From Rhodanobacteraceae bacterium (GTDB lineage: Bacteria > Pseudomonadota > Gammaproteobacteria > Xanthomonadales > SZUA-5), in assembly GCA_043754435.1 (NCBI GenBank), contig JAYUUS010000146.1, positions 14,400 through 78,399 on the forward strand: 64,000 nucleotides of DNA, in the 5' to 3' direction. The notes under the pieces are model-generated. The model had not been told where the DNA came from. It searched no databases and saw nothing but the letters and a program-made list of their open reading frames with translations. Positions 1 to 43,721 of the stretch are shown one piece after another. The first letter of the stretch is position 1; every line of letters begins with the position of its first letter. Made by a program: the position numbers and the translations under genes.

Positions 1-1033
1 GTGCCACTGGCTGTGCCGTATCTGCAAGCTCGATCCTTGTTACGGCCAGCCGGGCAGCAATTTGATCTGCACCAAACCAGCTGCCCACTACCACTAAGTC
101 AATTAAAACCAGAGAAATCAACAGCGCACCAAGCGCAGGTGGGCGTGTCGCCATAAAAAAATAAGCCAGTGTGCCAGTGCCTAATAGCGCAACAAAAAAC
201 GCGACATTGCCCATGCGCGAACCTGTTAATACCAGCGCAATGACCAAAAGCACCATGCAAATGCGAACCTGTGTTTTGCGCGCTAACAATAATGATACCC
301 AATCACGCGCAACTTGACGCCAGGACTGATCGCCTGCGCCATGAAAGCGCAGGCCAGCGACTAAAAGCCCAGCACCAATGGCTAGATGTAACTCCAAATA
401 GCCGGCAAAGCTGTTCTCATTAACGAATGCACTGCCACCGCCAATGCCAAACACAAAAAATTCAGAGACAAAACGTAAGCCCCAAAGCTTCACAATGCTG
501 GCAAATACCGCGTGCATTACCGCCGCCACAAACAAAACCATAAACACACGTTTTAGACGCCGATGCGTCTGAGCCAGAAGCAGAGTTTGCAAAAGAAGCT
601 GTAAGTACAAGCTAGTTTTTAGCAACGCACGAATACTGGCGGCGCGATCATCACTAAAATTACTGCCATTCCAGGCCCAACAATGGGCAAAATTTAGCAC
701 CAACCATAGTGCTAACAGAATAAGCAACCAAGGCCTACGCCGGTGAATACCGACTGTTGCTAGTCGTTCGGTCATGGGGACGGTCCAAATAAGCAGCACG
801 CTTACCGAGCACGTCAACGCTAGAAAACAGCCCCAAACCCAGTCGCGATTGCCGCCATAAAAAAAAGGCATCGCACTCAGCGTGATGAGTAGGGCAATAA
901 ACGCGATCTGTTCGCGACGTTGCCCCGTAAAAAAATCTAACGCAGGCGGCTGTTCAGAACGATGCGTGCTGCCAGACCGTCGGCTTCGCCTACCTTTAAA
1001 CGCATTATCACTTGTGTCTTCCCATGCACTCAT
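1..1033 (-). CDS. O-antigen ligase / Wzy_C-family polytopic membrane protein (partial, runs off left edge)
   Basis: The minus-strand frame is open from the ATG at 1033 to position 1. It is absent from the ORF track because it has no stop in the window. My translation is MSAWEDTSDN...PFFYGGNRDWVWG...VIALVLTGSRMGNVAFFVALLG... It shows many hydrophobic helices and a GSRMG-type motif typical of the Wzy_C/O-antigen ligase domain. The start overlaps the stop of the upstream gene (ATGA). Confidence 0.6.
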   Translation of the reverse strand, partial: MSAWEDTSDNAFKGRRSRRSGSTHRSEQPPALDFFTGQRREQIAFIALLITLSAMPFFYGGNRDWVWGCFLALTCSVSVLLIWTVPMTERLATVGIHRRRPWLLILLALWLVLNFAHCWAWNGSNFSDDRAASIRALLKTSLYLQLLLQTLLLAQTHRRLKRVFMVLFVAAVMHAVFASIVKLWGLRFVSEFFVFGIGGGSAFVNENSFAGYLELHLAIGAGLLVAGLRFHGAGDQSWRQVARDWVSLLLARKTQVRICMVLLVIALVLTGSRMGNVAFFVALLGTGTLAYFFMATRPPALGALLISLVLIDLVVVGSWFGADQIAARLAVTRIELADTAQPVA

Positions 1034-2100
1034 GCTTGGTCAAGACCATTTACCGTCAATGTCGAAAGTCGGCGGCCCAACCAATGTGCGCGCTTGATGG
1101 CGTGCATGATCCATAAGTGGTAAGAAATTGCCGCCACTAAAAATACCATCAGTTGGATTGAAGCGGGTAAATGAATCGCATGAAACAGCACGCCTATGGA
1201 CTGGAGTACTATGACGGTAAACAAAATCAAACTCAATGATTGCGGCACTGAAAAACCGACCCGCTGCAACAAATGATGTAGATGCTGCTGATCAGGCTTA
1301 AATGGCGAACTACCGTTTTGTACACGTCGAAGCATTAGTGAAACCGTATCAACAAGCGGAACCGCGAGCCAAAACAAGGCGCTTACGGGCATGAAAGTAT
1401 GTAGGGGCGCTTGGGAAGCATTGACCGTTAGCCAAGCGACCAAAAGCCCAGAAGACATGCTACCGGCATCGCCGAAAAAAACCTTCGCTTTGTTAAGCCA
1501 AGGCGTACGAACGTTAAGGCATAAAAAAGGAATGAGTGCCGCGACCGCAAGCCCGCACACCAGCGCCATATTGGCTTGCCAAAGGTGATGAAAAAATGTC
1601 AGCAATAGGCACAGTATGAGCAACAAAATTAGGCCCAACAAACCGTCCATGCCATCAATCATATTGGTCGCATTGATGACCCCGACACAGGCAAATACAG
1701 TGAGCGGCCAACTGAGGCTGGCGGCGTATACAGGGTGCCCTGGCCAAAATAACTCACCAAAATTTGCCAGCGGCGCGCTATGCCAAAAAGCCACAATGAC
1801 GGCTAGCGCCTGCACTAACAAGCGCAGCACTGAAGGCAAAGGAATACGATCATCAACCGCGCCTAAAACGCAAATAATGGTTAGGCCTACCATCAACCAC
1901 GGCAGTTGAGTTAATAGTCCCGATGCGGCCATGCCAGCAAAAAATGCCAACATCCACGCCAAACCACCCACAGCCGGAACCGGCTCGCGATGAAGTTTGC
2001 GCACATCAGGTTGATCTAACCAATTAAAGCGTATGGCGAGGGCGCGCAACGCCAGCAGCGCAATGGCCGCAAAAATAGCGGTAAAAAGCGCGTATTTCAC
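1030..2100 (-). CDS. Polyprenyl-phosphate N-acetylhexosamine-1-phosphate transferase (MraY/WecA/WbpL family, initiating glycosyltransferase)
   Basis: 356 aa polytopic membrane protein. Family motifs present: GAVDDRIPL, NATNMIDGMDGL, FFGDAGS. Confidence 0.85.
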   Translation of the reverse strand: MKYALFTAIFAAIALLALRALAIRFNWLDQPDVRKLHREPVPAVGGLAWMLAFFAGMAASGLLTQLPWLMVGLTIICVLGAVDDRIPLPSVLRLLVQALAVIVAFWHSAPLANFGELFWPGHPVYAASLSWPLTVFACVGVINATNMIDGMDGLLGLILLLILCLLLTFFHHLWQANMALVCGLAVAALIPFLCLNVRTPWLNKAKVFFGDAGSMSSGLLVAWLTVNASQAPLHTFMPVSALFWLAVPLVDTVSLMLRRVQNGSSPFKPDQQHLHHLLQRVGFSVPQSLSLILFTVIVLQSIGVLFHAIHLPASIQLMVFLVAAISYHLWIMHAIKRAHWLGRRLSTLTVNGLDQA

Positions 2101-2230
2101 GGCGACTCAGTTCGCGCAGGCGAATGGGTGATAAACAAACTTAAACGATCGCTTTTGCTCACTTACAGATTCCTGGGCATGAAGAATGTAGAAAGCAGTT
2201 TGGCTCAACTTTCCTGAACCAAGCTAGGCA

Positions 2231-3409
2231 TTACAACTTTGACAAAGCAAAAGATTGGTAAATTGCTAGCGTTTTAAGCGCGCACGCTTGCCAGCCTAAG
2301 GCACCATCCGCCCACTCCTGTCCGCGCTTACCACGTATTTTAGCCTCTTGCGGATCACAAAAAGCCGCTTCAATCGCGGCGCGAATGCTTGCAACCGTTG
2401 CTTCACAAATCCACCCCGCGTCGGCTGCGGACGCGGCTTTCGCTAATCCAACGCCGTTTGAAAGCACCACGGGTATGCCAAAGCACAGTGCTTCAGCTGC
2501 AGCGTTACCAAAATTTTCATTTTTCGACACGAGCGCTAAGACCTGGGCATGCTGAATCCACGCCCATTTTTCGTCACCTTTGAGCTCGCCTAAAAATATC
2601 ACGCGGCTTTGCGAATTCAATCGGTTAACGAGCATCTGCAACTCGCTCATGATTGAATCTTGCTGATCCACACCGCCTGCTAACACCAAATGAATATTCC
2701 TCAAGGTGCTACAGGCTTCAATCAGCAGATCCAAATTTTTTTTCCAAGACAAACGCCCTAAATACAGCACATACGGATCTTGCATGGGTGCCGGCCAGTC
2801 GCGTTGCGTCGGCAAGGTAACGCCGTTTTCAATTACACAAGGATTTTGCACAGGCACACCGAGCCGGTAGGCGTCATTTAGCTCTAAACTTGATGTCGCG
2901 TGAAAGCATGCCGCATGCGCGAGCGTTTGCCGCTCGAAAAGTCGAATCCAAGCCGTTTTCAAAAACCGGCGTTTTCCACTAATTAATTCCGGCACCAACA
3001 TTCCACGCGGTGCGATCACGTAGGGAATTCCTGCCGCGATACATACCCGCGCCGCCATATTGGTCGGAAATAAAAAAACTGAATGCAGATGCACAACATC
3101 AAATGCGGTGATATTTGCCTGCAGCCATTGCCGCATCGCCCACGAAAAATAGAGCCGACGTAACCATTTAGAGCGGAAATACCAAACCTTGACGCCGTCC
3201 AGCATGCACGCTTGACCATGCACCACATTGGAATCTAAGGGGCCATCGACGCTCGTGGTAAGCACCGATACATCGGCACCTAGCGCCGCTTGGGCACAGG
3301 CTAAACCATGCACTGAAAAAATCGGCCCGCCGTAGCGGGTAGCCGGTAGATAAGTTGGCACGACATGCAAAATTCGCAATGCGTGCGGCTTGGATGGCAA
3401 GCTGACCAT
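2231..3409 (-). CDS. Glycosyltransferase, GT4 (group 1) family
   Basis: 392 aa. N-terminus is ILHVVPTYLPATRYGGP. The C-terminal region ENFGNAAAEALCFGIPVV carries the E-x7-E type motif of retaining GT-B glycosyltransferases. Confidence 0.8.
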   Translation of the reverse strand: MVSLPSKPHALRILHVVPTYLPATRYGGPIFSVHGLACAQAALGADVSVLTTSVDGPLDSNVVHGQACMLDGVKVWYFRSKWLRRLYFSWAMRQWLQANITAFDVVHLHSVFLFPTNMAARVCIAAGIPYVIAPRGMLVPELISGKRRFLKTAWIRLFERQTLAHAACFHATSSLELNDAYRLGVPVQNPCVIENGVTLPTQRDWPAPMQDPYVLYLGRLSWKKNLDLLIEACSTLRNIHLVLAGGVDQQDSIMSELQMLVNRLNSQSRVIFLGELKGDEKWAWIQHAQVLALVSKNENFGNAAAEALCFGIPVVLSNGVGLAKAASAADAGWICEATVASIRAAIEAAFCDPQEAKIRGKRGQEWADGALGWQACALKTLAIYQSFALSKL

Positions 3410-3417
3410 TTCTTTAC

Positions 3418-5187
3418 CTAACTCAAACTTGTTCGTTCAAGCAACCAATCCCCGAGCACCAACACGTCCATTTTGGTGCGTAAAAAACATGCCAACGCCT
3501 CCGCTGGGCGACAAACCACCGGCTCGTTTTCATTGAATGACGTATTCAATAAAATAGGCACACCGGTTGCTAGCCGAAAAGTATCAATGAGCCGGTAATA
3601 GCGCGGGTTATCCGCCTGCTGCACGGTTTGCAAACGTCCGCTGCCATCAACATGCGTCACCGCAGGAATTTGCACGCGTTTATCTGCCCGTATCGGCAAT
3701 ACTTGCGCCATAAATGGCACCGACACATCTTCAGTAAACCAGTCACTCACGTATTCACGTAAAATGCTGGGTGCGAACGGGCGGAAGGATTCTCGGCGTT
3801 TGATTTTGGCGTTGAGGATATCTTTAATGTCCGTGCGACGTGGGTCCGCCAAAATGGAGCGGTTTCCCAATGCTCTGGGGCCAAATTCCATTCGACCTTG
3901 GAACCAGCCGATAATGTGGCCGCGTTGAATGCGCGCCACGACAACTTGGCAAAGTTCCGTTTCATCGGCCATTAAGCGTACCGACACATTTTCCCGCGCA
4001 ATGTCATCCGCGCACGCATCAATAGCCGCTTTGCATTGAGCGTTATCAAATTCAGGGCCTAAGTAGGCGTGCTCCAGCGCGTGCGTGCGCGGCTGACCGA
4101 GGGAACGCGCCCCGACGAGTGCGGCACCAATTGCGCCACCGGCGTCTGCGCCGCTGGCAGCAACATAAATCCTTTTAAACGGCGTATTTGCCGTAATTTT
4201 TCCATTCGCGACTGAATTTTGCGCGCAACCGCCCGCAAGCGCCAAATCATCAATCCCATATTTGGCATGCAGGGCATTTAACAGGGCAAACAGACTTTCC
4301 TCATAAACGCACTGAACGCTCGCAGCAAGATCTTTATCCGACTGCGTTAACGCACTATTTGGATCGCGCGCAGGACCTAAAAGTTCGACTATTTTTGCTG
4401 AGAACAAGGCATCAAATTTCGGCGCACCATCTTCCCATTGATAGTTCAGGCTGTCGGTATGGTGGCGAAAATAGTCTAAGTTCAGTTCGTAGCTGCCGTC
4501 GGCCTTATGTGCCAGCAACTTACGAACTTGCGCAACTAGAGTGGGTTTGCCGTATGGCGCTAAGCCCATTATTTTATATTCGTCGCCGTAATTCATAAAA
4601 CCCAAATACTGGGTCATGGCTTGATAAAAAATACCCAGCGAATGCGGAAAATAGGCGTGACCGTCGATACTCAATTTAACATCGAGTCCAGCACCTTCAC
4701 CGATACCATAGGCACCAGAAGCAAAATCGCCAAAACCATCAATTGAAACGGCCAGCGCGCGCTTGAACGGTGAACAGTCGAAAGCGCTGGCTAAATGCGC
4801 CAAATGGTGTTCAATAGACAAAAATTTACCAGCAAAGCGTTGTTCTGGAAAGGCACTCTGAAGATGTTCGAGTGCGCCCATGCGGGCGTGACGCGTTTTA
4901 AGCTTTTCGACAATTAAACTTAAACTCGGGCGTTTTTTGATTGCGTATAGCAAGCGTTGGCCGCGCGCCACAGACGGATCGGTATTGATTGCGATCGCAT
5001 TGACGGCATCAAGCGTCACACCTGCCTCTTGCAAACAAAATTTAATCGCTTCTGTAGGAAAACCCGCCCAATGTTTAATTCGGCGGAAACGCTCCTCTTC
5101 CGCTGCTGCCACCAAATTGCCATCAATGACCAATGCGGCCGCAGAGTCAGCATGGAAGGCATTTAGTCCAATGACAATATTGCGCAT
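3418..5187 (-). CDS. Carbamoyltransferase (NodU/CmcH family)
   Basis: 589 aa. N-terminus GLNAFHADSAAALVIDGNLVAAAEEERFRRIKHWAGFP and C-terminal NTSFNENEPVV are typical of NodU/CmcH O-carbamoyltransferases. Confidence 0.9.
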   Translation of the reverse strand: MRNIVIGLNAFHADSAAALVIDGNLVAAAEEERFRRIKHWAGFPTEAIKFCLQEAGVTLDAVNAIAINTDPSVARGQRLLYAIKKRPSLSLIVEKLKTRHARMGALEHLQSAFPEQRFAGKFLSIEHHLAHLASAFDCSPFKRALAVSIDGFGDFASGAYGIGEGAGLDVKLSIDGHAYFPHSLGIFYQAMTQYLGFMNYGDEYKIMGLAPYGKPTLVAQVRKLLAHKADGSYELNLDYFRHHTDSLNYQWEDGAPKFDALFSAKIVELLGPARDPNSALTQSDKDLAASVQCVYEESLFALLNALHAKYGIDDLALAGGCAQNSVANGKITANTPFKRIYVAASGADAGGAIGAALVGARSLGQPRTHALEHAYLGPEFDNAQCKAAIDACADDIARENVSVRLMADETELCQVVVARIQRGHIIGWFQGRMEFGPRALGNRSILADPRRTDIKDILNAKIKRRESFRPFAPSILREYVSDWFTEDVSVPFMAQVLPIRADKRVQIPAVTHVDGSGRLQTVQQADNPRYYRLIDTFRLATGVPILLNTSFNENEPVVCRPAEALACFLRTKMDVLVLGDWLLERTSLS

Positions 5188-5282
5188 CTAACGTCCTGTT
5201 ATTAACAATTTAATTGAAAAATCAATTTTTAAGATTGACCAAAATTTCACCAGCTAATTGATATGAGAAATTTATCATAGAA

Positions 5283-6602
5283 TTAATCGAAACCACGCGA
5301 TAGGCGTGTAGTGATGACTTGCAGCAAATAGCCTAAAATAATAAACGCTGCCACACCTGAAACGGTCTCAGAAAGCGCTCCTCCGACATTAGTTAGTGCG
5401 ATTCCTGGGATTACCCAACGAATCCACATCATTAAGTTGTTTTTCATAAGATATTCAGCTGCCATCAAATCGATTGAACGCAAAATCAAGCCTATTAAAA
5501 ACATTCCTATATACAGAGAAACGTCGCCAAAGTTACCGTAAAACTCAAGTATATGTCCGACCCCAACGCTAGTGTTGTCGGAAAAAGTTAGACCCGTCAG
5601 GCTGGCAGCGATATTACCACTGCCTGCAACGCTGGGTTTATTGATCCAAATGGCGCGTGGCACCCATGCAACTAGCGCAAATAGAAACGATTCACCCTGT
5701 AAAAATTCGGAGCGCCCAGAGCTTAGACTTTCAACTGCGGAACCAACTAACCAATTTTGGTTGAGGCGTTCATCAACCGCTTTTAAATGAAAAAAATTAT
5801 CCGGATCAAACCATTTGAAGTCGGTAAAAATAACTGAAGTAGCGTCCGCTCTCACGCTTAACGATTGATCGCCCCAAACTGCATCACGAATATCACTTCG
5901 CTGCGGTAAATAGTTAACAAAGAATGAAACTCCAACGTAAACAAGCACGGGGGCGGCGACAAAAATTATTTTTGGGAAATACTTTTGAGAAACACCAAAA
6001 CAAATAATAAAAACTAGATAGGTTATGCCAAACCCTAAAAAACCGAGAAGCATAATTGAGAGCGCTGGAAAACCGAGTGCGATGATATATACATGTAAAG
6101 GCATTTTTTTATTATTTAATATAAATGCGTGCATATAAATACAAAGGCCGGGAGCCCCTAATAACCAAATGGCACCTAATAATGCTGAGAGTGAAGGAAT
6201 TTGAAACAAAAAGTTGGCTTGACTCGTCAGAAAAGTAAAGCCTATTCCAATTGCAATAAGCAACGTGCCCAATCGCTTTGCGGCAATTGGATTGGGTTGT
6301 TTAGGATTAATGGTCGGTGTCGATAGTGCAAACCTTGCAACTAACGCTCCCATGACAAATGCCACTAAACCAAAGCAGGTCATCTGAAAACCTAGGAATG
6401 TCCATATTCTTGGATAATACTCATACCAGGGTACCAACAAAAGCATGCCGCCCGGCAGGTGAATGATGGATAGCTGGGCCGCATAGATAAGCGTTAACCC
6501 AGATGAGGGCTTGGTGCGCGCCTCCACAAACAAAACTGCCAGCAGTGCAAACCAGAGGATGCATAGCGAATAAGCTGCGTTATGATCTATGACAGTATGC
6601 AT
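5283..6602 (-). CDS. Polytopic membrane protein, O-antigen polymerase (Wzy)-like
   Basis: 439 aa with about 10 or more hydrophobic segments and one large hydrophilic loop (about residues 235-300). It is visibly AT-richer than its neighbours and is the first gene of the glycan cluster. I recognised no catalytic motif, so the call rests on topology and context. Confidence 0.45.
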   Translation of the reverse strand: MHTVIDHNAAYSLCILWFALLAVLFVEARTKPSSGLTLIYAAQLSIIHLPGGMLLLVPWYEYYPRIWTFLGFQMTCFGLVAFVMGALVARFALSTPTINPKQPNPIAAKRLGTLLIAIGIGFTFLTSQANFLFQIPSLSALLGAIWLLGAPGLCIYMHAFILNNKKMPLHVYIIALGFPALSIMLLGFLGFGITYLVFIICFGVSQKYFPKIIFVAAPVLVYVGVSFFVNYLPQRSDIRDAVWGDQSLSVRADATSVIFTDFKWFDPDNFFHLKAVDERLNQNWLVGSAVESLSSGRSEFLQGESFLFALVAWVPRAIWINKPSVAGSGNIAASLTGLTFSDNTSVGVGHILEFYGNFGDVSLYIGMFLIGLILRSIDLMAAEYLMKNNLMMWIRWVIPGIALTNVGGALSETVSGVAAFIILGYLLQVITTRLSRGFD

Positions 6603-36929: not shown

Positions 36930-37184
36930 TTACCCACCTGAAAACGGCGGCAAAAACGCAATCACATCACCGTCTTGCAGCGTGTGTGTCCAGCTTACCA
37001 ACGCGTCATTGCAAACGGGTTTAAGCGCGCTTTGAGGGAAGCCAAAGCCGTGGCGCGCGTCTAAGCAGGCGTAAATTTCGCCTAGATCGGCGCTGGCGCT
37101 GTCGATGGTTTCCGCATCGCATCCGGCGCTTTCGCGTAAACGCGCAAAATAGTGCACGACGATTTTTATTGCTACTAATGTCAT
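36930..37184 (-). CDS. moaD: Molybdopterin synthase sulfur-carrier subunit MoaD
   Basis: 84 aa ending in ...FLPPFSGG (C-terminal Gly-Gly). The ATG at 37184 overlaps the moaC stop (ATGA). The longer 166-aa track ORF is a spurious upstream extension. Confidence 0.8.
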   Translation of the reverse strand: MTLVAIKIVVHYFARLRESAGCDAETIDSASADLGEIYACLDARHGFGFPQSALKPVCNDALVSWTHTLQDGDVIAFLPPFSGG

Positions 37185-37708
37185 GGTTTCCCTATATGCA
37201 TGCGTTTGCCGCCACTTTTTTGCAGCAAACGTACTTGGCTGATTTGAATGTCTAAGCTCAGCGCCTTGGTCATATCGTAAATGGTGAGGGCGGCAACACT
37301 GGCACCGGTTAGCGCCTCCATTTCCACGCCGGTTTTTGCGCTTAAAGAACATTCGCATTCGATGTCTAAATTGCCAGCCGGATCGGGCGTGATGCGGATT
37401 TCGCAGTGTTCTAGGCTGAGCGCATGGCAAAACGGTATCAGCTCGTGCGTGCGTTTGGCCGCCATCACGCCGGCAATGATTGCAGTGTGGAGGATTGCGC
37501 CCTTTTTACCGGTAAAGCCGGTGGCCAAAAGCTGCGCGCCGATGTCCGCCGGGAACTCAACCCGCGCCTGTGCAATGGCGCGGCGTGCAGTAACGACTTT
37601 GGCCGCCACATCGACCATAGTTGGGTTGCCCGCAGGGTCGATATGGCTTATCTGGCGTGTCGCCTGGTCGGCGAGACTGATGGATTGCTCTGATAATTTA
37701 GCCGCCAA
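37181..37708 (-). CDS. moaC: Cyclic pyranopterin monophosphate synthase MoaC
   Basis: Carries MVDVAAK, KGAILHTAIIAGVMAAKRTHELIPFCH and ALTIYDM. Confidence 0.9.
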   Translation of the reverse strand: MAAKLSEQSISLADQATRQISHIDPAGNPTMVDVAAKVVTARRAIAQARVEFPADIGAQLLATGFTGKKGAILHTAIIAGVMAAKRTHELIPFCHALSLEHCEIRITPDPAGNLDIECECSLSAKTGVEMEALTGASVAALTIYDMTKALSLDIQISQVRLLQKSGGKRMHIGKP

Positions 37709-38867
37709 GGTGATACATCTCCGATTTTTGCTCTGTTAGCGAGTCATGGATTGCGGGCGCGCTGTTGGCTAGGCGCTCGGCGCGCAATTCCGAATAGCGA
37801 TCCGCACGCGCCCGCCAAATAGCTTTGATGGTGTTGCTGACCAACATCGCATCGTGCGTTTTCAGCAGCGCCAATAAATCATGCCCGTGCGCACTAAATA
37901 GGCAGGTAAATAATTTGCCGTCTGCCGCCACGCGCGCGCGCGTGCAGCCTCTGCAAAATGGGCTGCTGATGGCGGAAATAAAGCCAATTTCGCCCGCGCC
38001 ATCCAAATAACGAAAGCGGGTTGCGACCTCGCCCATCGTCGCCTGCTGAATTTGCTCGATTGGATATTTTGCATGGATGCGCGCAATCAAGTCCGCGCTT
38101 GGAACCACATGCTCAGGCTGCCAACCGTTGCAGGTGCCGACGTCCATATATTCAATAAAACGCGGCACGTGCGCGCGGTGGCGAAAGTGTTTGCATAAAG
38201 GCAATACGTCGCATTCATTGACGTTTTTTTGCACCACGCAGTTCAATTTGATCGCGCTAAAGCCAGCACCTTCGGCAGCGTCGATGCCGCGCAAAACCGC
38301 TGATAGCTCGCCCCGGCCACCGCTTAGCGCTTTGAAGCGCTGTGGATCAAGGCTGTCTAAACTAATGGTCAAACGATCCAAACCGGCTGCGTGAAGTTCG
38401 GCCGCTTGGTTCGCCAACAGGCTGGCGTTGGTGGTGAGCGCGATTTCAATCGGCTGCGCCAGCTGCACGCTTAAACTGCGGGCGGCACGAATAATGCCGG
38501 GTAAGTCCTTGCGCATTAACGGCTCGCCGCCGGTGATGCGCAGTTTTTGCATGCCCAGGTGCAGCAGGGCGCTAACCAGCGTTTTTAGCTCGTCGGTGCC
38601 CATGCGCTGACTGGGTGTCAGAAATTTAAGCGGTGGCGCTACAAATTTGATCCGCGTTGGTTCGCTGCTCCCGTTTGCGGTGACCAACCGCGTTTGCTCA
38701 GCCTCCGGCATGCAATAGCCACAGCGGTAATTACAGCGATCCATCACCGAAACGCGCGCATCACGCAGGGCGCGTGCAAGCTGGTCGATGACCGGCTGCT
38801 GGCGCAAAAGTGCGCTCAAGCGTGCTGGCCCAGCGCAATGCGCGCGCCCGGCACCAGAACCCGCCAC
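37698..38867 (-). CDS. moaA: GTP 3',8-cyclase MoaA (radical SAM)
   Basis: Carries RVSVMDRCNYRCGYCMP (CxxxCxxC), GGEPLMR and the C-terminal cluster CRGCTRARV. The annotated ATG overlaps the upstream gene by 52 nt, so the true start may be an internal alternative codon. Confidence 0.9.
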   Translation of the reverse strand: MAGSGAGRAHCAGPARLSALLRQQPVIDQLARALRDARVSVMDRCNYRCGYCMPEAEQTRLVTANGSSEPTRIKFVAPPLKFLTPSQRMGTDELKTLVSALLHLGMQKLRITGGEPLMRKDLPGIIRAARSLSVQLAQPIEIALTTNASLLANQAAELHAAGLDRLTISLDSLDPQRFKALSGGRGELSAVLRGIDAAEGAGFSAIKLNCVVQKNVNECDVLPLCKHFRHRAHVPRFIEYMDVGTCNGWQPEHVVPSADLIARIHAKYPIEQIQQATMGEVATRFRYLDGAGEIGFISAISSPFCRGCTRARVAADGKLFTCLFSAHGHDLLALLKTHDAMLVSNTIKAIWRARADRYSELRAERLANSAPAIHDSLTEQKSEMYHLGG

Positions 38868-39541
38868 CCACGTTCGGCAATTTTATGGGCCTCAACTTGA
38901 TTGTGCTGATGGTACAGATACATGCGTTGGCGCAGCGCGTTTGCATACTCGCGCTCCAAATCTTCAATCCCGGTATGCGATGGGTTTGCGGTGAACGTGC
39001 AGTCGTGAAACAGGGTTTCATTGCCCGCGCCAAAATGCGCAAACACTTCCGGCACCGGTCGGGTGTCGCCGCTGTAGACAAATTGCCCGGCCAGCGCCAA
39101 GCCAAACGCACTATTCGGCGCGTGGTGGCGCACTGGAAACACTGAAAAAACTAAGCCGTCGTGGAAAAACGTGTTGCTGACCGGGATCAACTGAAACGCA
39201 TCCCAAAAGTTTTTGCCGCCTTCGGCTAAGCCGGGAAACTCGGCTAGACGCGCGTGCAGCATCGGCACTAGACTGACTGGCGCATACAGCTTGATTTGCG
39301 TCGGCTTGAAAGTGGCTTGATAGAAAAACGTCTCTAAACCGCCAATATGATCCAGATGTGCGTGCGTCAGGAAAATTGCGCCCGGTAATTCTCCATACGC
39401 GGCCCGGTAGCGGTCGGGCGTGCTGGGGCCGCAGTCGAGCAACAGCAACGGACGCGTGTGCCGCTCCAATACCGCGCTGGCGGAGCCTAACTCCATAGAG
39501 CTGGCACTGCCCGTGCCTAAAAAGTGCATCGCAAAACTCAT
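38816..39541 (-). CDS. MBL-fold metallo-hydrolase
   Basis: 241 aa with the motif THAHLDHIGG. Confidence 0.75.
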   Translation of the reverse strand: MSFAMHFLGTGSASSMELGSASAVLERHTRPLLLLDCGPSTPDRYRAAYGELPGAIFLTHAHLDHIGGLETFFYQATFKPTQIKLYAPVSLVPMLHARLAEFPGLAEGGKNFWDAFQLIPVSNTFFHDGLVFSVFPVRHHAPNSAFGLALAGQFVYSGDTRPVPEVFAHFGAGNETLFHDCTFTANPSHTGIEDLEREYANALRQRMYLYHQHNQVEAHKIAERGWRVLVPGARIALGQHA

Positions 39542-39549
39542 TATTAAAC

Positions 39550-40326
39550 CTATACGCCTTGATACGCGGCCAGCAGCGCAGGCCAGAGCTTATTGGAAAA
39601 ATCGGCGCGCGCGGCAAAGCCTAATTTGGTTAGCGAGCGCAGCAAGCGCGCCAAGTTTGCCTGCTGCCACACCCGCTTAGGCTTGCGCAACAGACAGCGA
39701 TCAAAATCTATTAACGCTGGGCCAGCATCGGTCAACAAAATATTGTGGGCGTTTAAATCCGCGTGCCAAAGTGCAGCACCGTTGATATTCGCCCCGTGAA
39801 AGCGCTGCAACATGTGCCCAATGGCGTGAAAATCCGCAACAGTCGCCGTCTGCACATGCGCCGAAAGTGGATTTGCCCCAGGCAACCACGCAGTCAAAAT
39901 ATCGGCGCGATAGCTCAAGCCTGAGCGCACAAAGCGCGCCGCCAGCGGTGCGGGTACGGGCAAATTGTGGCTGTGCAAAGTCGCCAGTAAGCGCAGCTCT
40001 CTAAAACAGCGCGTCGCTTGCGCGCCAATAAACACGTAACGATCTTGCCAAAGCGCGCCGGTCATGCCGCCCCGACGATAGTGCCGCAGCGCGCCGACAC
40101 CGAAAGAACCCAGCACTTGAAACGCTTGTCCACGGCCATCACGCAGCGCTTTTGCACTACTGCCGTAGCTGCTGGGGTCAAAAAGCTGCGCCAATGGCTC
40201 CGCCACGCGGGCGCGATCCACTAATGCCCAGCCGCGCTCAATGCGTTCAAGCACAAGCGCAGTGTCGGCGACTTTCAACAGTGTGGCAGGGTTGGATTTG
40301 GTTACCATGCGGCGAAGTTTATCCAA
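39550..40326 (-). CDS. kdkA: 3-deoxy-D-manno-octulosonic acid (Kdo) kinase
   Basis: 258 aa. Carries LRHYRRGG and WHADLNAHNILL, which are typical of KdkA. Confidence 0.8.
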   Translation of the reverse strand: MDKLRRMVTKSNPATLLKVADTALVLERIERGWALVDRARVAEPLAQLFDPSSYGSSAKALRDGRGQAFQVLGSFGVGALRHYRRGGMTGALWQDRYVFIGAQATRCFRELRLLATLHSHNLPVPAPLAARFVRSGLSYRADILTAWLPGANPLSAHVQTATVADFHAIGHMLQRFHGANINGAALWHADLNAHNILLTDAGPALIDFDRCLLRKPKRVWQQANLARLLRSLTKLGFAARADFSNKLWPALLAAYQGV

Positions 40327-40398
40327 TTTCCAGTTAGCCGCGCTTTAGATGATCTAAAGTAAGGGAAGATGAAGATAATTAACCACCATGGTTGAAAA

Positions 40399-40722
40399 GT
40401 GTCCCATATAAGCCCATTCTATCCGATAGACGAAGTTCGCGCGGCAGCGGCAGCAGGTCGGCTCATCGCTGAGTCTGGGGCTGATACGCACTCACGCGAA
40501 TTGGGTTACAGCAGGGAAGCTGTGCTCAAGGTTCTTAAAAATTTGGACATCAAACAGTTTCACAAGACATACCTTTATCCGCAGCGCAATTTTCCGCTTG
40601 ATTCGTACAAGCTGAAAGCCCTGTCCGACACCAAGCAATTCGATGACCTCTACATCAAATTTGCATTGCGGGGCGAAGGTAGGTCACGAATTCTCTTGGT
40701 GTCCTTTCATTTGAATAGGTAG
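40399..40722 (+). CDS. mqsR: Type II toxin, MqsR family
   Basis: 107 aa with a GTG start. The N-terminal P-x-Y-x-I..V....AG pattern, the ELG block, F.K and the C-terminal ILLVSFHLNR align by eye with E. coli MqsR (...VLIVSFKEK). Confidence 0.75.
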   Translation: MSHISPFYPIDEVRAAAAAGRLIAESGADTHSRELGYSREAVLKVLKNLDIKQFHKTYLYPQRNFPLDSYKLKALSDTKQFDDLYIKFALRGEGRSRILLVSFHLNR

Positions 40723-40737
40723 TTGGAAGAAGCCACC

Positions 40738-41265
40738 ATGAAGTGCCTGATTTGCGAGACTGGAAATTTGACCGCTGCAAGCCGTACCGAACCGTTGCGG
40801 TACAAAAACCGGGTGTTGCATGTGCACGGGTATTTGGTGTCGAACTGCGATGCTTGCGGAGCAAGCTTGGTGTTGACAGCGCAAATGAAAGTCAATCAAC
40901 GCCTGATGGCCGACGCTGAACGCCGTGCCGATGGGCTGCTGACGAGTAATGAGATCAAAAAAGTACGCGAGTTGCTGAACTTGAACCGAGGTCAAGCGTC
41001 CAAGGTGTTTGGTGGGGGTCCCAATGCTTTTAGCAAGTACGAGCGGGGCGAAATCCATCCTTCCGAGGCAGTGAATAAGCTTATGGTTTTAGTGCGGGAC
41101 GTACCCGAAGCCCGTAAAAAACTTCTACAAACAGCAGGCTTTGCTGTTTCCCAATGGGTTGATGACAAAATCGGGGTGCCCATTGAACAAGTAGGATCAA
41201 CCGATTGGCTCAATGCTTTGACGCAGGGGCAGCCCTCGACACGAGCAAGCTATGAAGTCCAATAA
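40738..41265 (+). CDS. mqsA: Type II antitoxin, MqsA family (zinc ribbon + XRE HTH) with a C-terminal extension of about 44 aa
   Basis: Carries MKCLICETG...CDACG (CxxC...CxxC) and the HTH block SKVFGGGPNAFSKYERGE, comparable to E. coli MqsA IFGGGVNAFSRYEKG. It is 175 aa versus about 131 in E. coli. The extra tail contains SQWVDD and STDWLNAL. Confidence 0.85.
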   Translation: MKCLICETGNLTAASRTEPLRYKNRVLHVHGYLVSNCDACGASLVLTAQMKVNQRLMADAERRADGLLTSNEIKKVRELLNLNRGQASKVFGGGPNAFSKYERGEIHPSEAVNKLMVLVRDVPEARKKLLQTAGFAVSQWVDDKIGVPIEQVGSTDWLNALTQGQPSTRASYEVQ

Positions 41266-41704
41266 AGCGGTTGCCGCAGAAGTCCGTAACCAAATCGAGC
41301 TACAAGATATTGTCTTACTAGACGCACATTCCCAACAAAGCTTCGAAGCGCAGGCCCCACTGGTGCAGCAATCACGCCATTGGGTTGATTCGGCCTTGGT
41401 CGATGTAGACGGTAAAAAGTGCGTCCAGGCGGTAGTGGACTTAGGTGTTCGATTAGTGGATGCCAAGAACGTCTTGCGTTGTGAAGTTGCTGCACGGTTT
41501 TTATTGAGCTATCAGTGCAAACAGGGCTTGAGCAAGGAGCAACTAGAAGCGCTCAGCGATAATTTTGTGCACAACGCTTGGCCGTTTTGGCGCCAACATG
41601 TGTTTGATTTGGTGCAGCGAAGCCGACTCCCACGCATTGAAGTTCCTCTATTCGGCGGCCTACGTAAGAAGATCGCGGCGGCGGCAAGGACGCAAAAAAA
41701 ATGA
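41252..41704 (+). CDS. SecB-like chaperone (putative third component of a toxin-antitoxin-chaperone module)
   Basis: 150 aa. IELQDIVLLDAHSQ parallels SecB FQIQRIYTKDISFE. NAWPFWRQHVFDLVQRSRLPRIEVP parallels SecB [27 protein letters not shown] and the mycobacterial Rv1957 segment ALYPYIREYVYDLTGRLALPPLTLE. The start overlaps the mqsA 3' end by 14 nt. Confidence 0.65.
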   Translation: MKSNKAVAAEVRNQIELQDIVLLDAHSQQSFEAQAPLVQQSRHWVDSALVDVDGKKCVQAVVDLGVRLVDAKNVLRCEVAARFLLSYQCKQGLSKEQLEALSDNFVHNAWPFWRQHVFDLVQRSRLPRIEVPLFGGLRKKIAAAARTQKK

Positions 41705-41777
41705 TTTATAGACCGTTATCGCACTATTTTTGCCGTCGTTCGGCAAGGCTAGTTAGCGTTACTCAGGGCGAGTCTAA

Positions 41778-42833
41778 ATGAATGTGTGCATTTTTCGTCT
41801 TTCTGCGCTGGGCGACGCGACCCATGTGTTAGCGCTGATTGATGCCATACAACGCGACCCAGTCAGCCAACATTGGCGCTTAATCTGGGTACTTGGGCCG
41901 GGTGAAGCCAAGCTTGTGGCAGGTTTGCCGGGTGTGGAGTTGGTCGTCTATAACAAGCGCAGCGGTCTAAAAGGCGCGTGGGAGTTGCGTAAAAGAGTGT
42001 TACGGCTGCTCAATGGCGGTGCATTTGATGTGCTGTTACAGCTACAGCTCGCGCTGCGGGCGAATTTGATTTCCAGGCTAATTCCGGCCAAACGCCGGAT
42101 TGGTTTTGATGTAGCGCGCAGCAAAGAGCTACACAGTCTCGTTATCAACGAACGCATCGCCAGCGATGCTGGCCCACACGTATTGGACGCGATGCTGGGT
42201 TTTTTGACGCCGCTGGGCATTGCGCGCCCGGCGCAGCTGCATTGGCCGCTGGTGATTCCAGCGGATGCCCACGCATTCGCCGAAACCCATCTGCCAGCAG
42301 GCCAGCGGTATTTAGTGCTCAGCCCGTGCTCCTCACACGCGTTGCGCAATTGGCTACCAGAACGCTATGCCGCTGTCGCCAATTTTGCCTCGGAAAAATT
42401 AGGCTTGACACCAGTTTTGGTCGGCGGCAAAAGTGCCATAGAAGTCGCAATGGCGGCCGCGATTCGTGCGCCGTTACGTGTGCCATACATTGATTTGGTT
42501 GGCAAAGACACGCTCAAACAGTTGCTAGCGGTGCTGGCGCGCGCTACGGTGGTGTTGAGCCCCGATTCTGGCCCCGCACATATGGCACAAGCTTTGGGCA
42601 CGCCGGTTGTGGGCCTCTACGCCGCCACCGACGCCAAGCGCAGCGGCCCGTATCGCGCACAGCATTTATGCACCCAGCACTATGCCCATGCAGCACAGCA
42701 ATTCTTAGGCAAACCGGCAGAAAATTTGCGCTGGGGCCAAAAAATCGAGCGCGAGGGCGTAATGGCTTTGATTACCGTGGACGAAGTTTGTTTGCTGCTG
42801 GAGCGTGCAGCGTCAGGAAATCGCCTGAGTTAG
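41778..42833 (+). CDS. Glycosyltransferase family 9 (LPS heptosyltransferase-like)
   Basis: 351 aa. The N-terminus is IFRLSALGDATHVLALI and the C-terminal region is DSGPAHMAQALGTPVVGLY, both typical of GT9. Confidence 0.8.
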   Translation: MNVCIFRLSALGDATHVLALIDAIQRDPVSQHWRLIWVLGPGEAKLVAGLPGVELVVYNKRSGLKGAWELRKRVLRLLNGGAFDVLLQLQLALRANLISRLIPAKRRIGFDVARSKELHSLVINERIASDAGPHVLDAMLGFLTPLGIARPAQLHWPLVIPADAHAFAETHLPAGQRYLVLSPCSSHALRNWLPERYAAVANFASEKLGLTPVLVGGKSAIEVAMAAAIRAPLRVPYIDLVGKDTLKQLLAVLARATVVLSPDSGPAHMAQALGTPVVGLYAATDAKRSGPYRAQHLCTQHYAHAAQQFLGKPAENLRWGQKIEREGVMALITVDEVCLLLERAASGNRLS

Positions 42834-43056
42834 GGCGTGGCATGTGGGTCGCAAGTGAATCTGCAATTTGCTGCATCAAGCTTTTATTTTGTAGCACATG
42901 CAGCGTTTCCTGCTCTCGCTCCCAATCATCGGCACTGACCACTACAAATGCCTCGCCCGCACGGCGGGTTACTTTTATCGGCGTGTGATTGCTAACGACC
43001 TGTTCTACGTAGGTTTTTAGCTTGTCTCTGAATTGGTTGACGCTGACGGTTTCCAT
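42772..43056 (-). CDS. yefM: Phd/YefM-family antitoxin with its 3' end truncated and read through into repeat copy 1; no toxin gene present
   Basis: METVSVNQFRDKLKTYVEQVVSNHTPIKVTRRAGEAFVVVSADDWEREQETLHVLQN aligns by eye with E. coli YefM. After residue 72 the frame enters the antisense of the GT9 3' end. I place the start at the ATG at 43056. Confidence 0.7.
   Translation of the reverse strand: METVSVNQFRDKLKTYVEQVVSNHTPIKVTRRAGEAFVVVSADDWEREQETLHVLQNKSLMQQIADSLATHMPRPNSGDFLTLHAPAANKLRPR
42801..42840. repeat. 40-bp direct repeat, copy 1 (forms the current 3' end and stop of the GT9 gene)
   Basis: GAGCGTGCAGCGTCAGGAAATCGCCTGAGTTAGGGCGTGG. It matches 43104-43143 at 37 of 40 positions. Confidence 0.85.
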
Positions 43057-43103
43057 AATGATTGCCAAATGTACGGGGTTTCCGTACAAATTAGCATAGC
43101 GAT

Positions 43104-43143
43104 GAACGTGCAGCGTCAGGGAATCGCCTGAGTTAGTGCGTGG
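43104..43143. repeat. 40-bp direct repeat, copy 2 (displaced duplicate of the GT9 3' end)
   Basis: GAACGTGCAGCGTCAGGGAATCGCCTGAGTTAGTGCGTGG. It would encode the same peptide, ERAASGNRLS*. Both in-frame differences are synonymous. Confidence 0.85.
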
Positions 43144-43295
43144 TTTGCGCTAGCTGGCGTGGCAAACTGGGGTTCGCTTTCCTTGGAGATTTATGTGGCA
43201 GTCCTGACATCAACGTTTGAACGCCTAAGGCATGAAAAGTGCATTGTTGATTTGTTTAGGGATCACCTTTCAGATGAATCTTTGCCAGGAATAGC

Positions 43296-43715
43296 ATGAC
43301 AGGCTCTCGTCATTTCCTGCTGCGAAGTTCCGAGACTTCAGACTGGATTGAGTTCACGTCACTCGATGAGCTCTCAGACTGGTCTTTCGACATACGGGCT
43401 TTCTTTCGGGGCTACGCCGTAAAAGAAACGTCAGTGACGCTGGGAGACTTATCAATCTTCGCCAACGATTTGGTTACCTTCGAACGCACAAGAAAGGGCA
43501 AAGCATGTATTGCAGGAACCTACGACTTTGAATTTGCTGTGGAGGCCTTCGAGCGCCGGGGCAGTGCGCTGGTGACTTTTTCCTTAACTAATCTCCTGCA
43601 CCTTCCCAACAACAAGTACGGGCGGTGCCTTCTAGAGGCCGCATTTGTCGTCAATGGCGAGTACGTTGCAAGTATGTGTCGGGGCTTGGCAGCGCTGGCG
43701 GCTCCAATTAATTAA
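43296..43715 (+). CDS. Hypothetical cytoplasmic protein
   Basis: 139 aa ORF with no signal peptide and no motif I recognise. It ends 6 nt before the kinase gene. Confidence 0.4.
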   Translation: MTGSRHFLLRSSETSDWIEFTSLDELSDWSFDIRAFFRGYAVKETSVTLGDLSIFANDLVTFERTRKGKACIAGTYDFEFAVEAFERRGSALVTFSLTNLLHLPNNKYGRCLLEAAFVVNGEYVASMCRGLAALAAPIN

Positions 43716-43721
43716 GCCTCC

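Follow-up and report, generated by a model that had tools for sequence, protein, structure and literature searches.

Toxin-antitoxin-chaperone (TAC) systems illustrate the gating of a toxin by a proteostasis factor. Within the group built on the toxin MqsR and its antitoxin MqsA, Bordes et al. demonstrated in Escherichia coli that MqsRA of Vibrio cholerae RC385 needs its SecB-like chaperone (Bordes et al. 2016, PMC5105189). The antitoxin of that system has 176 residues, of which 136-176 form the chaperone-addiction domain (ChAD). The same study found ChAD-chaperone pairs to be specific and transferable, and the ChADs of TAC antitoxins to share no significant similarity with one another (PMC5105189). 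In E. coli C496_10 the corresponding system, MqsRAC, protects against phage T2 and confers about 10^5-fold higher cell viability under T2 attack (Vassallo et al. 2022; Fernandez-Garcia et al. 2023; PMC9519451, PMC10783111). Here we analyze a related locus at positions 40399-41704 of a 64,000-nt stretch of the Rhodanobacteraceae contig JAYUUS010000146.1, the whole of which we call the window. Its three genes very likely constitute an intact tripartite TAC module of the MqsRAC type that entered the lipopolysaccharide (LPS) core locus by horizontal transfer, as a cassette of 1.43 kb between kdkA and a GT9 gene. A preliminary description of this DNA had regarded MqsRA-linked TAC systems as noted bioinformatically but far less studied, a view superseded by the experimental work in V. 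cholerae (PMC5105189) and E. coli (PMC9519451, PMC10783111).

The operon and its three products

The module consists of three open reading frames (ORFs) on the plus strand. The first, mqsR (40399-40722), encodes a 107-residue ribonuclease toxin of the MqsR family from a GTG start. It is followed by mqsA (40738-41265), whose 175-residue product combines a zinc-ribbon N-terminal domain, a helix-turn-helix domain and a C-terminal tail, and by ORF3 (41252-41704) for a SecB-like TA chaperone of 150 residues ('MqsC'). While the program-made ORF list opens mqsA at a TTG at 40723, we used the ATG at 40738. Read from the sequence in this way, mqsR and mqsA are spaced by 15 nt (40723-40737) and mqsA overlaps ORF3 by 14 nt (41252-41265), which suggests translational coupling of the chaperone to mqsA. 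The coordinates, gap and overlap given earlier for these co-directional genes all proved exact on re-reading. Toxin, antitoxin and chaperone thus follow each other in the TAC order within one tightly spaced operon.

The toxin passes the Pfam model MqsR_toxin (PF15723) narrowly, scoring 29.4 bits where 26.2 are required (E=1e-6), and the match spans positions 2-94 of the 95 in the model. Single-sequence searches were insufficient for both MqsR and ORF3, and family profiles were required. A search of the PDB with the single MqsR sequence retrieved no MqsR and only beta-trefoil matches, which we consider spurious, while a profile of 25 MqsR orthologues from related loci matched E. coli MqsR (3hi2_B) at full length with E=4e-11. 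Residues D68, Y85, K87, S102, F103 and H104 are invariant among the orthologues. Y85 and K87 align with the VYLK motif of the E. coli toxin, and the C-terminal S-F-H is the other invariant group. We presume that these conserved residues have the catalytic roles described in the MqsR literature.

The antitoxin is recognized more clearly, with 83.7 bits for Pfam MqsA_antitoxin (PF15731) and 114 bits for TIGR03830 over residues 3-129. The Pfam matches of the toxin and the antitoxin agree with the homology proposed for them in the preliminary description. E. coli MqsA (2kz8, 131 residues) aligns to residues 1-124 of the window protein (E=3e-12), and C6, C37 and C40 are invariant in the family, with C3 nearly so. 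Every match to a model or structure stops at residue 125-129 or thereabouts, leaving about 45 residues beyond. This ChAD-like extension (41131-41262, residues ~132-175, ...SQWVDDKIGVPIEQVGSTDWLNALTQGQPSTRASYEVQ) contains SQWVDD and STDWLNAL as well as a C-terminal Tyr (...ASYEVQ). Described before as lying past the helix-turn-helix domain, it is beyond the reach of all models and of E. coli MqsA. An AlphaFold (AF2) model built on 65 homologues has a mean predicted local distance difference test score (pLDDT) of at least 94 in each ten-residue block over residues 1-130. The blocks over residues 141-175 have 53-56, with a lone short helix at 156-162 (STDWLNAL), and the tail is probably disordered according to this model. 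A 13-nt direct repeat, CCA(A/T)TGGGTTGAT, occurs at 41151-41163 and at 41377-41389 and is translated as WVD in the MqsA tail as well as in the chaperone. Chance is the probable explanation, because that Trp is not conserved across the chaperone family.

The third gene is the least conspicuous in standard searches. As a single sequence ORF3 has no match in Pfam, NCBIfam or PADLOC, even at permissive thresholds, and none in the PDB. Against Pfam SecB (PF02556), for which the cut-off is 26 bits, its relatives reach 14-21 bits, and the aligned part is always the same C-terminal portion of the model. Of the three profile matches suggested earlier as a check of the products, MqsR_toxin and MqsA_antitoxin were obtained and Pfam SecB was not, and because Pfam SecB is not matched, the SecB assignment rests on profile-to-PDB and fold evidence. 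The family is large, with 2413 clusters at 50% identity (E<=1e-3) or 550 at E<=1e-10, and carries the almost invariant motif VHNAWPFWRQHV...LP...P. The best PDB match of its profile is 5mtw_C, the TA-associated chaperone Rv1957 of Mycobacterium tuberculosis (E=0.0065, query 16-146 versus chain 26-164). The HMMER alignment recovers the block WPFWRQHVFDLVQRSRLP versus YPYIREYVYDLTGRLALP that had been aligned by eye in the preliminary description.

The predicted structure of ORF3 leads to the same protein. In the confident AF2 model (pLDDT 83.9, predicted template modelling score 0.78), a long helix follows four long antiparallel strands. The four chains of 5mtw ranked first in a Foldseek search of the PDB (E=4e-8 to 2e-7, TM-score 0.66-0.77; 0.71/0.76 for the top match), and the SecB proteins of Haemophilus influenzae and E. 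coli next (E~1e-6, TM-score ~0.6; 1fx3, 1ozb, 1qyn). The top 19 matches comprise Rv1957 and then canonical SecB, with nothing else comparable. Guillet et al. described contacts of Rv1957 residues D27, L154 and P155 with the ChAD peptide (PMC6377645), and in the HMMER alignment these correspond to D19, L126 and P127 of ORF3, all invariant or nearly so in its family. On profile and model evidence, ORF3 is a SecB-fold protein closest to Rv1957, yet not a member of Pfam SecB. The similarity first noticed by eye has thereby gained an independent footing in the profile (E=0.0065) and in Foldseek (E=4e-8).

Linkage of the tail and the chaperone among relatives

The comparison with relatives is useful to evaluate whether the MqsA tail and the chaperone belong together. 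Scanning one genome per GTDB species, we collected 51 loci encoding an ORF3 relative, mostly from Gammaproteobacteria (Xanthomonadales/Lysobacterales, Alcanivoracaceae, Chromatiaceae, Methylococcales, Vibrio and Pseudoalteromonas). A long-tailed MqsA lies directly upstream on the same strand in 46 of these loci, mostly overlapping the chaperone gene, with MqsR further upstream. Such an arrangement is far beyond chance. The longest MqsA ORFs in these linked loci have 176-266 codons. Among the five others, one (L050) has a truncated MqsA of 117 residues and four are contig-edge cuts or fragments. All chaperone-linked MqsA proteins are 45-60 residues longer at the C-terminus than E. coli MqsA, whose sequence in this alignment agrees with the PDB alignment. 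The tails are highly variable, usually with an aromatic residue near the C-terminus, in agreement with the TAC antitoxins described by Bordes et al. (PMC5105189). In a Synechococcaceae metagenome-assembled genome (MAG), MqsA and the chaperone share one 332-residue frame (L053, 595-1593), either a fusion or a sequencing error at about 2x coverage.

The nearest MqsA clade has 61-81% core identity to the window protein. Tail and chaperone are both intact in the window and in L146, each with the 14-nt overlap, and the two tails share only a W-x-VD patch and a C-terminal YE(V/I) motif (SYEVQ and CYEIH). Four further relatives (L143, L144, L147 and L148) have no chaperone gene, and their MqsA proteins of 152-164 residues in total end in short, unrelated tails. 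All four keep an MqsR-coding stretch, of which 77-108 residues align to the window toxin. The joint loss is noteworthy because deleting the chaperone gene need not physically delete a 45-codon tail. It agrees with what the chaperone-addiction model predicts, as a ChAD left without its chaperone should be lethal. For the window MqsA, we infer chaperone dependence from this comparative pattern, in which tail and chaperone are jointly present or jointly absent in the nearest clade.

The closest copy in GTDB species lies in another Rhodanobacteraceae MAG (L018, 5250-6419), where the chaperone is 73% identical over the best segment. That copy looks decayed: mqsR is truncated to about 72 residues and the chaperone is frameshifted at 6171, while MqsA keeps a YEVH end, and the locus is not beside kdkA or GT9. 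Three other metagenome contigs carry an identical chaperone gene together with mqsR and mqsA genes that differ in three codons each. Across these near-identical copies three differences are synonymous and three non-synonymous in total, too few for statistics.

The trio lies on the same strand between an N6_N4 DNA methyltransferase of about 1000 residues and a helicase/nuclease-like ResIII protein of about 930 residues in at least 13 related loci. These stem from 16 fetched entries, several of which are the same contig, and the entries include L006-L009, L013, L014, L017, L019, L020, L028, L029, L031, L032 and L034. There the trio appears to be embedded in a restriction-modification-like operon, in keeping with a role of the family in defence. 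Small Acinetobacter plasmids likewise carry relatives of the window chaperone.

The cassette in the lipopolysaccharide-core locus

The module is flanked by kdkA, encoding a Kdo kinase (39550-40308, minus strand; NF002475, 222 bits), and by a heptosyltransferase-like GT9 gene (41778-42833, plus strand; PF01075, 133 bits). These profile scores corroborate the position between divergent kdkA and GT9 genes given in the preliminary description. We compared 80 metagenomic kdkA loci, and in about 70 of them GT9 is divergent from and adjoins kdkA with no TAC module between. The closest locus, L063, has 90% protein identity for KdkA, 89% for GT9 and about 82% nucleotide identity to the window. In blastn, window 36932-40323 corresponds to positions 956-4343 of the reverse complement of L063 and window 41754-42836 to 4349-5431, so that 5 nt in L063 stand for the 1430 bp of window 40324-41753, which hold the whole module. 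Apart from this place and most of 42837-43719, the two sequences are collinear. The GC content is about 0.50 within the cassette and 0.55-0.60 in its flanks. The insertion that had been proposed for this locus thus has a base-precise empty site, and with the nearest GTDB copy (L018) in a different context and decayed, it is lineage-specific. Neither an integrase nor terminal inverted repeats accompany the 1430-bp insert, and no target duplication is convincing. A 7-nt repeat, AGTTAGC (40332 and 41751), was considered as a target-site duplication and rejected, with about 0.8 such repeats expected by chance.

The upstream part of the cassette contains the presumptive control region. An MqsA-operator-like palindrome, TAACCACCATGGTTG (40381-40395; AACC-N5-GGTT), ends 4 nt before the GTG start of mqsR. 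The AACC-N5-GGTT pattern is found directly 5' of mqsR in 38 of the 46 TAC loci, 310-391 nt upstream of mqsA, and has only three further matches elsewhere in 474 kb. The family consensus is TAACCAT-N-ATGGTTA, and its ACC-N5-GGT half-sites and their spacing agree with the E. coli mqsRA operator, ACCT TTT AGGT (PMC13409141). Since half-sites and spacing are the same, autoregulation by MqsA at this predicted operator is a natural inference by analogy. The layout of GGTTGAAAA plus start codon is common to the window and to L146, L148, L048 and L052. About 20 nt upstream of the operator-like site, and also within the cassette, lies a perfect 8-1-8 palindrome, CTTTAGAT g ATCTAAAG (40343-40359), which could be a second operator or cover the -35 region. 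At a comparable place the relative L144 has a different palindrome, TGATCTAGATCA. Candidate sequences that MqsA may bind within 40330-40400 are TAACCACCATGGTTG and/or CTTTAGATGATCTAAAG.

The insertion also bears on the flanking genes. In the relative without cassette, kdkA and GT9 are divergent and about 44 nt apart. In the window, about 15 nt of ancestral upstream DNA are left for kdkA and about 24 nt for GT9. With so little ancestral sequence remaining, kdkA must now be transcribed from cassette DNA, and the cassette DNA upstream of it holds both the operator-like and the second perfect palindrome. The GT9 gene follows the chaperone gene in the same direction after 73 nt. A consensus scan found no plus-strand terminator after 41704, between chaperone and GT9, and read-through into GT9 from the TAC promoter may occur for this reason. 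It is conceivable, and in our estimate rather unlikely, that the insertion rewired LPS-core expression by placing both kdkA and GT9 under cassette-borne control. In that case, the phosphorylation of Kdo and the heptosylation of the LPS core, a common phage receptor, would also respond to the state of MqsA. Loss of MqsA on stress or phage attack would then bring derepression and couple a TA or defence switch to surface remodelling.

Additional small elements surround the site. An antitoxin ORF of the Phd/YefM type (PF02604, 65 bits) on the minus strand at 42772-43089 lacks a partner toxin, and its 3' end overlaps the end of GT9. A 40-nt direct repeat (42801-42840 and 43104-43143, 93% identical) represents a duplicated 3' end of GT9. 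The segment between its copies (42837-43103) includes most of the Phd/YefM ORF, which is without counterpart in L063. Divergent from the Phd gene, a 139-codon ORF at 43296-43715 (GC 0.48, no Pfam or PADLOC match) is likewise absent from L063. Altogether, the region from kdkA through GT9 to a histidine kinase gene carries two or three small lineage-specific insertions. Downstream of kdkA, a gene with a metallo-beta-lactamase fold (38816-39541) has a precomputed Pfam match to Anti-Pycsar_Apyc1. Because it is syntenic with kdkA in nearly all of the 80 relatives, a housekeeping function appears more plausible than an anti-defence one.

Mechanism, alternatives and comparison with known systems

The homologies and the comparative genomics described above, together with the analogy to M. 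tuberculosis HigBA1-SecB(TA) and V. cholerae MqsRA-SecB(TA), suggest how the module would work. The tail would act as a ChAD that renders MqsA aggregation-prone and protease-sensitive unless it is bound by the SecB-like tetramer. Bound to the chaperone, MqsA would neutralize MqsR and act at the palindrome as a repressor of the operon. If phage infection or proteotoxic stress titrated or destroyed the chaperone or left it in short supply, MqsA would be lost, and MqsR would then cleave mRNA and arrest growth. By analogy to E. coli MqsRAC, the one such system whose defence function is documented in the literature, the physiological role would most likely be anti-phage defence or persistence, and this is the least certain step of the model.

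Several observations weigh against an intact and functional TAC module. Translation of mqsR starts at a GTG, no Shine-Dalgarno sequence is visible ahead of it, and a consensus scan found no sigma-70 promoter. In the alignment of the window toxin, an invariant His of the family occupies what we take to be the position of K96 in E. coli MqsR. ORF3 does not match Pfam SecB even at E<=1, and PADLOC run on all three proteins returned only a weak, unrelated RmrA match on MqsA. Acidic residues neighbour the Trp residues of the tail (QWVDD, TDWLN) and its end is SYEVQ, while classical SecB-binding motifs and the M. tuberculosis ChAD are aromatic and basic, with acidic residues disfavoured (PMC5105189). 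Finally, the window copy does not lie in a defence island, unlike many of its relatives.

Some of these points would suit an ordinary two-component MqsRA system in which ORF3 is a passenger, either a generic SecB paralogue or a protein of another function, and the MqsA tail is irrelevant to it. The lack of database matches for ORF3, a poorly conserved tail that is acidic around its Trp residues, and bipartite relatives within the same MqsA clade speak for such a passenger. Those very relatives, however, have lost tail and chaperone together in all four cases, the chaperone family almost always follows a long-tailed MqsA with usually overlapping genes (46 of 51 loci), and the best structural match is the TA-dedicated Rv1957 and not an export SecB. 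We therefore regard the passenger explanation as highly improbable. The GTG start of mqsR without a Shine-Dalgarno sequence and the lack of a consensus promoter, along with the degraded state of the closest GTDB copy, might instead indicate a decaying, non-functional remnant. This is very improbable as well, given that the three ORFs are full length with every family-invariant residue kept, that the operator is retained in a start-site layout shared with four relatives, and that three other metagenome contigs carry the same chaperone gene unchanged, together with nearly identical copies of mqsR and mqsA.

A functional TAC module could still have a purpose other than phage defence, either as a selfish addiction or stabilization element or as a switch for stress and persistence. 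The solitary insertion between housekeeping LPS genes outside a defence island would be in line with this idea. So would the stress-responsive behaviour described for the M. tuberculosis TAC, and the second small antitoxin-bearing insertion nearby, which suggests a hotspot for selfish elements. On the other side stand the large gain in viability that E. coli MqsRAC provides under T2 attack (PMC9519451, PMC10783111), the methyltransferase and ResIII context of the related loci, and the relatives located beside cI in a lambdoid phage and on small plasmids. We consider a purely selfish or stress-related role possible but unlikely. An intact MqsRAC-type TAC module acquired as a cassette accounts for the linkage, the joint loss and the empty site, and it remains our preferred reading.

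The locus and its comparative set leave the known picture of TAC systems unchanged, though some points may be of use to others who study them. To MqsRAC, whose anti-phage activity is proven, this locus adds an intact, divergent chromosomal member from an uncultured gammaproteobacterium-like organism. The empty-site comparison indicates that the cassette moves as a 1.4-kb unit without a recombinase of its own. The chaperones linked to MqsRA form a large family that is missed by Pfam SecB, and the family shows conservation of an MqsA operator of the E. coli type (AACC-N5-GGTT). The joint loss of tail and chaperone provides natural-history support for the chaperone-addiction model.

How does the module compare with the systems described so far? 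The paradigm TAC, HigB1-HigA1-SecB(TA) of M. tuberculosis (Rv1955-1957), provides the chaperone that is the best structural and profile match to ORF3, with an identity of about 15%. Its toxin and antitoxin are HigBA whereas those of the window are MqsRA. The M. tuberculosis ChAD has about 45 residues with two Trp-centred stretches, and the window tail has two Trp residues and a C-terminal Tyr; the motifs are basic in the former (WHRLSSYR) and acidic in the latter. Canonical SecB (PF02556) has the same fold of a four-stranded sheet and a long helix, but it is only 11-15% identical to ORF3, which is TA-linked and dedicated. The MqsR and MqsA folds of E. coli K-12 are homologous to those of the window, and ACC-N5-GGT palindromes occur alike at the promoter. 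The K-12 system, in contrast, has two components, with a 131-residue MqsA that lacks a tail and no chaperone.

Further counterparts are found on mobile DNA of E. coli. The lambdoid Escherichia phage PhiR70_1 (L062, 1185-2707) carries a trio of genes for proteins of 136, 195 (MqsA) and 167 residues (SecB-like) beside cI. Of 5426 complete E. coli genomes, 18 contain this trio with >=99% identity. The Prokaryotic Genome Annotation Pipeline labels the E. coli copies as MqsA antitoxin and protein-export chaperone SecB, and the 136-residue product of the first gene has no Pfam MqsR match. The phage chaperone aligns to the window family in hhalign with 98.7% probability (E=2e-16). Compared directly with the window proteins, it is about 39% identical over 57 residues, and the phage MqsA is 36% identical. 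The E. coli copies lie in a prophage, while the window copy is placed between LPS-core genes.

The TAC of V. cholerae RC385 draws its toxin, antitoxin and chaperone from the families seen in the window, in an identical order. There, MqsA has 176 residues and the ChAD spans 136-176, compared to 175 and ~132-175 in the window. The published primers for the RC385 TAC matched none of the fetched loci. The V. cholerae antitoxin ends in ...ELEACYV and the window protein in ...ASYEVQ, and the tails are not alignable across clades. E. coli MqsRAC is likewise tripartite, composed of MqsR, MqsA and a SecB-type chaperone. The MqsRAC type has thus already been validated experimentally, and the window locus is an additional, divergent member of it rather than a different kind of system.

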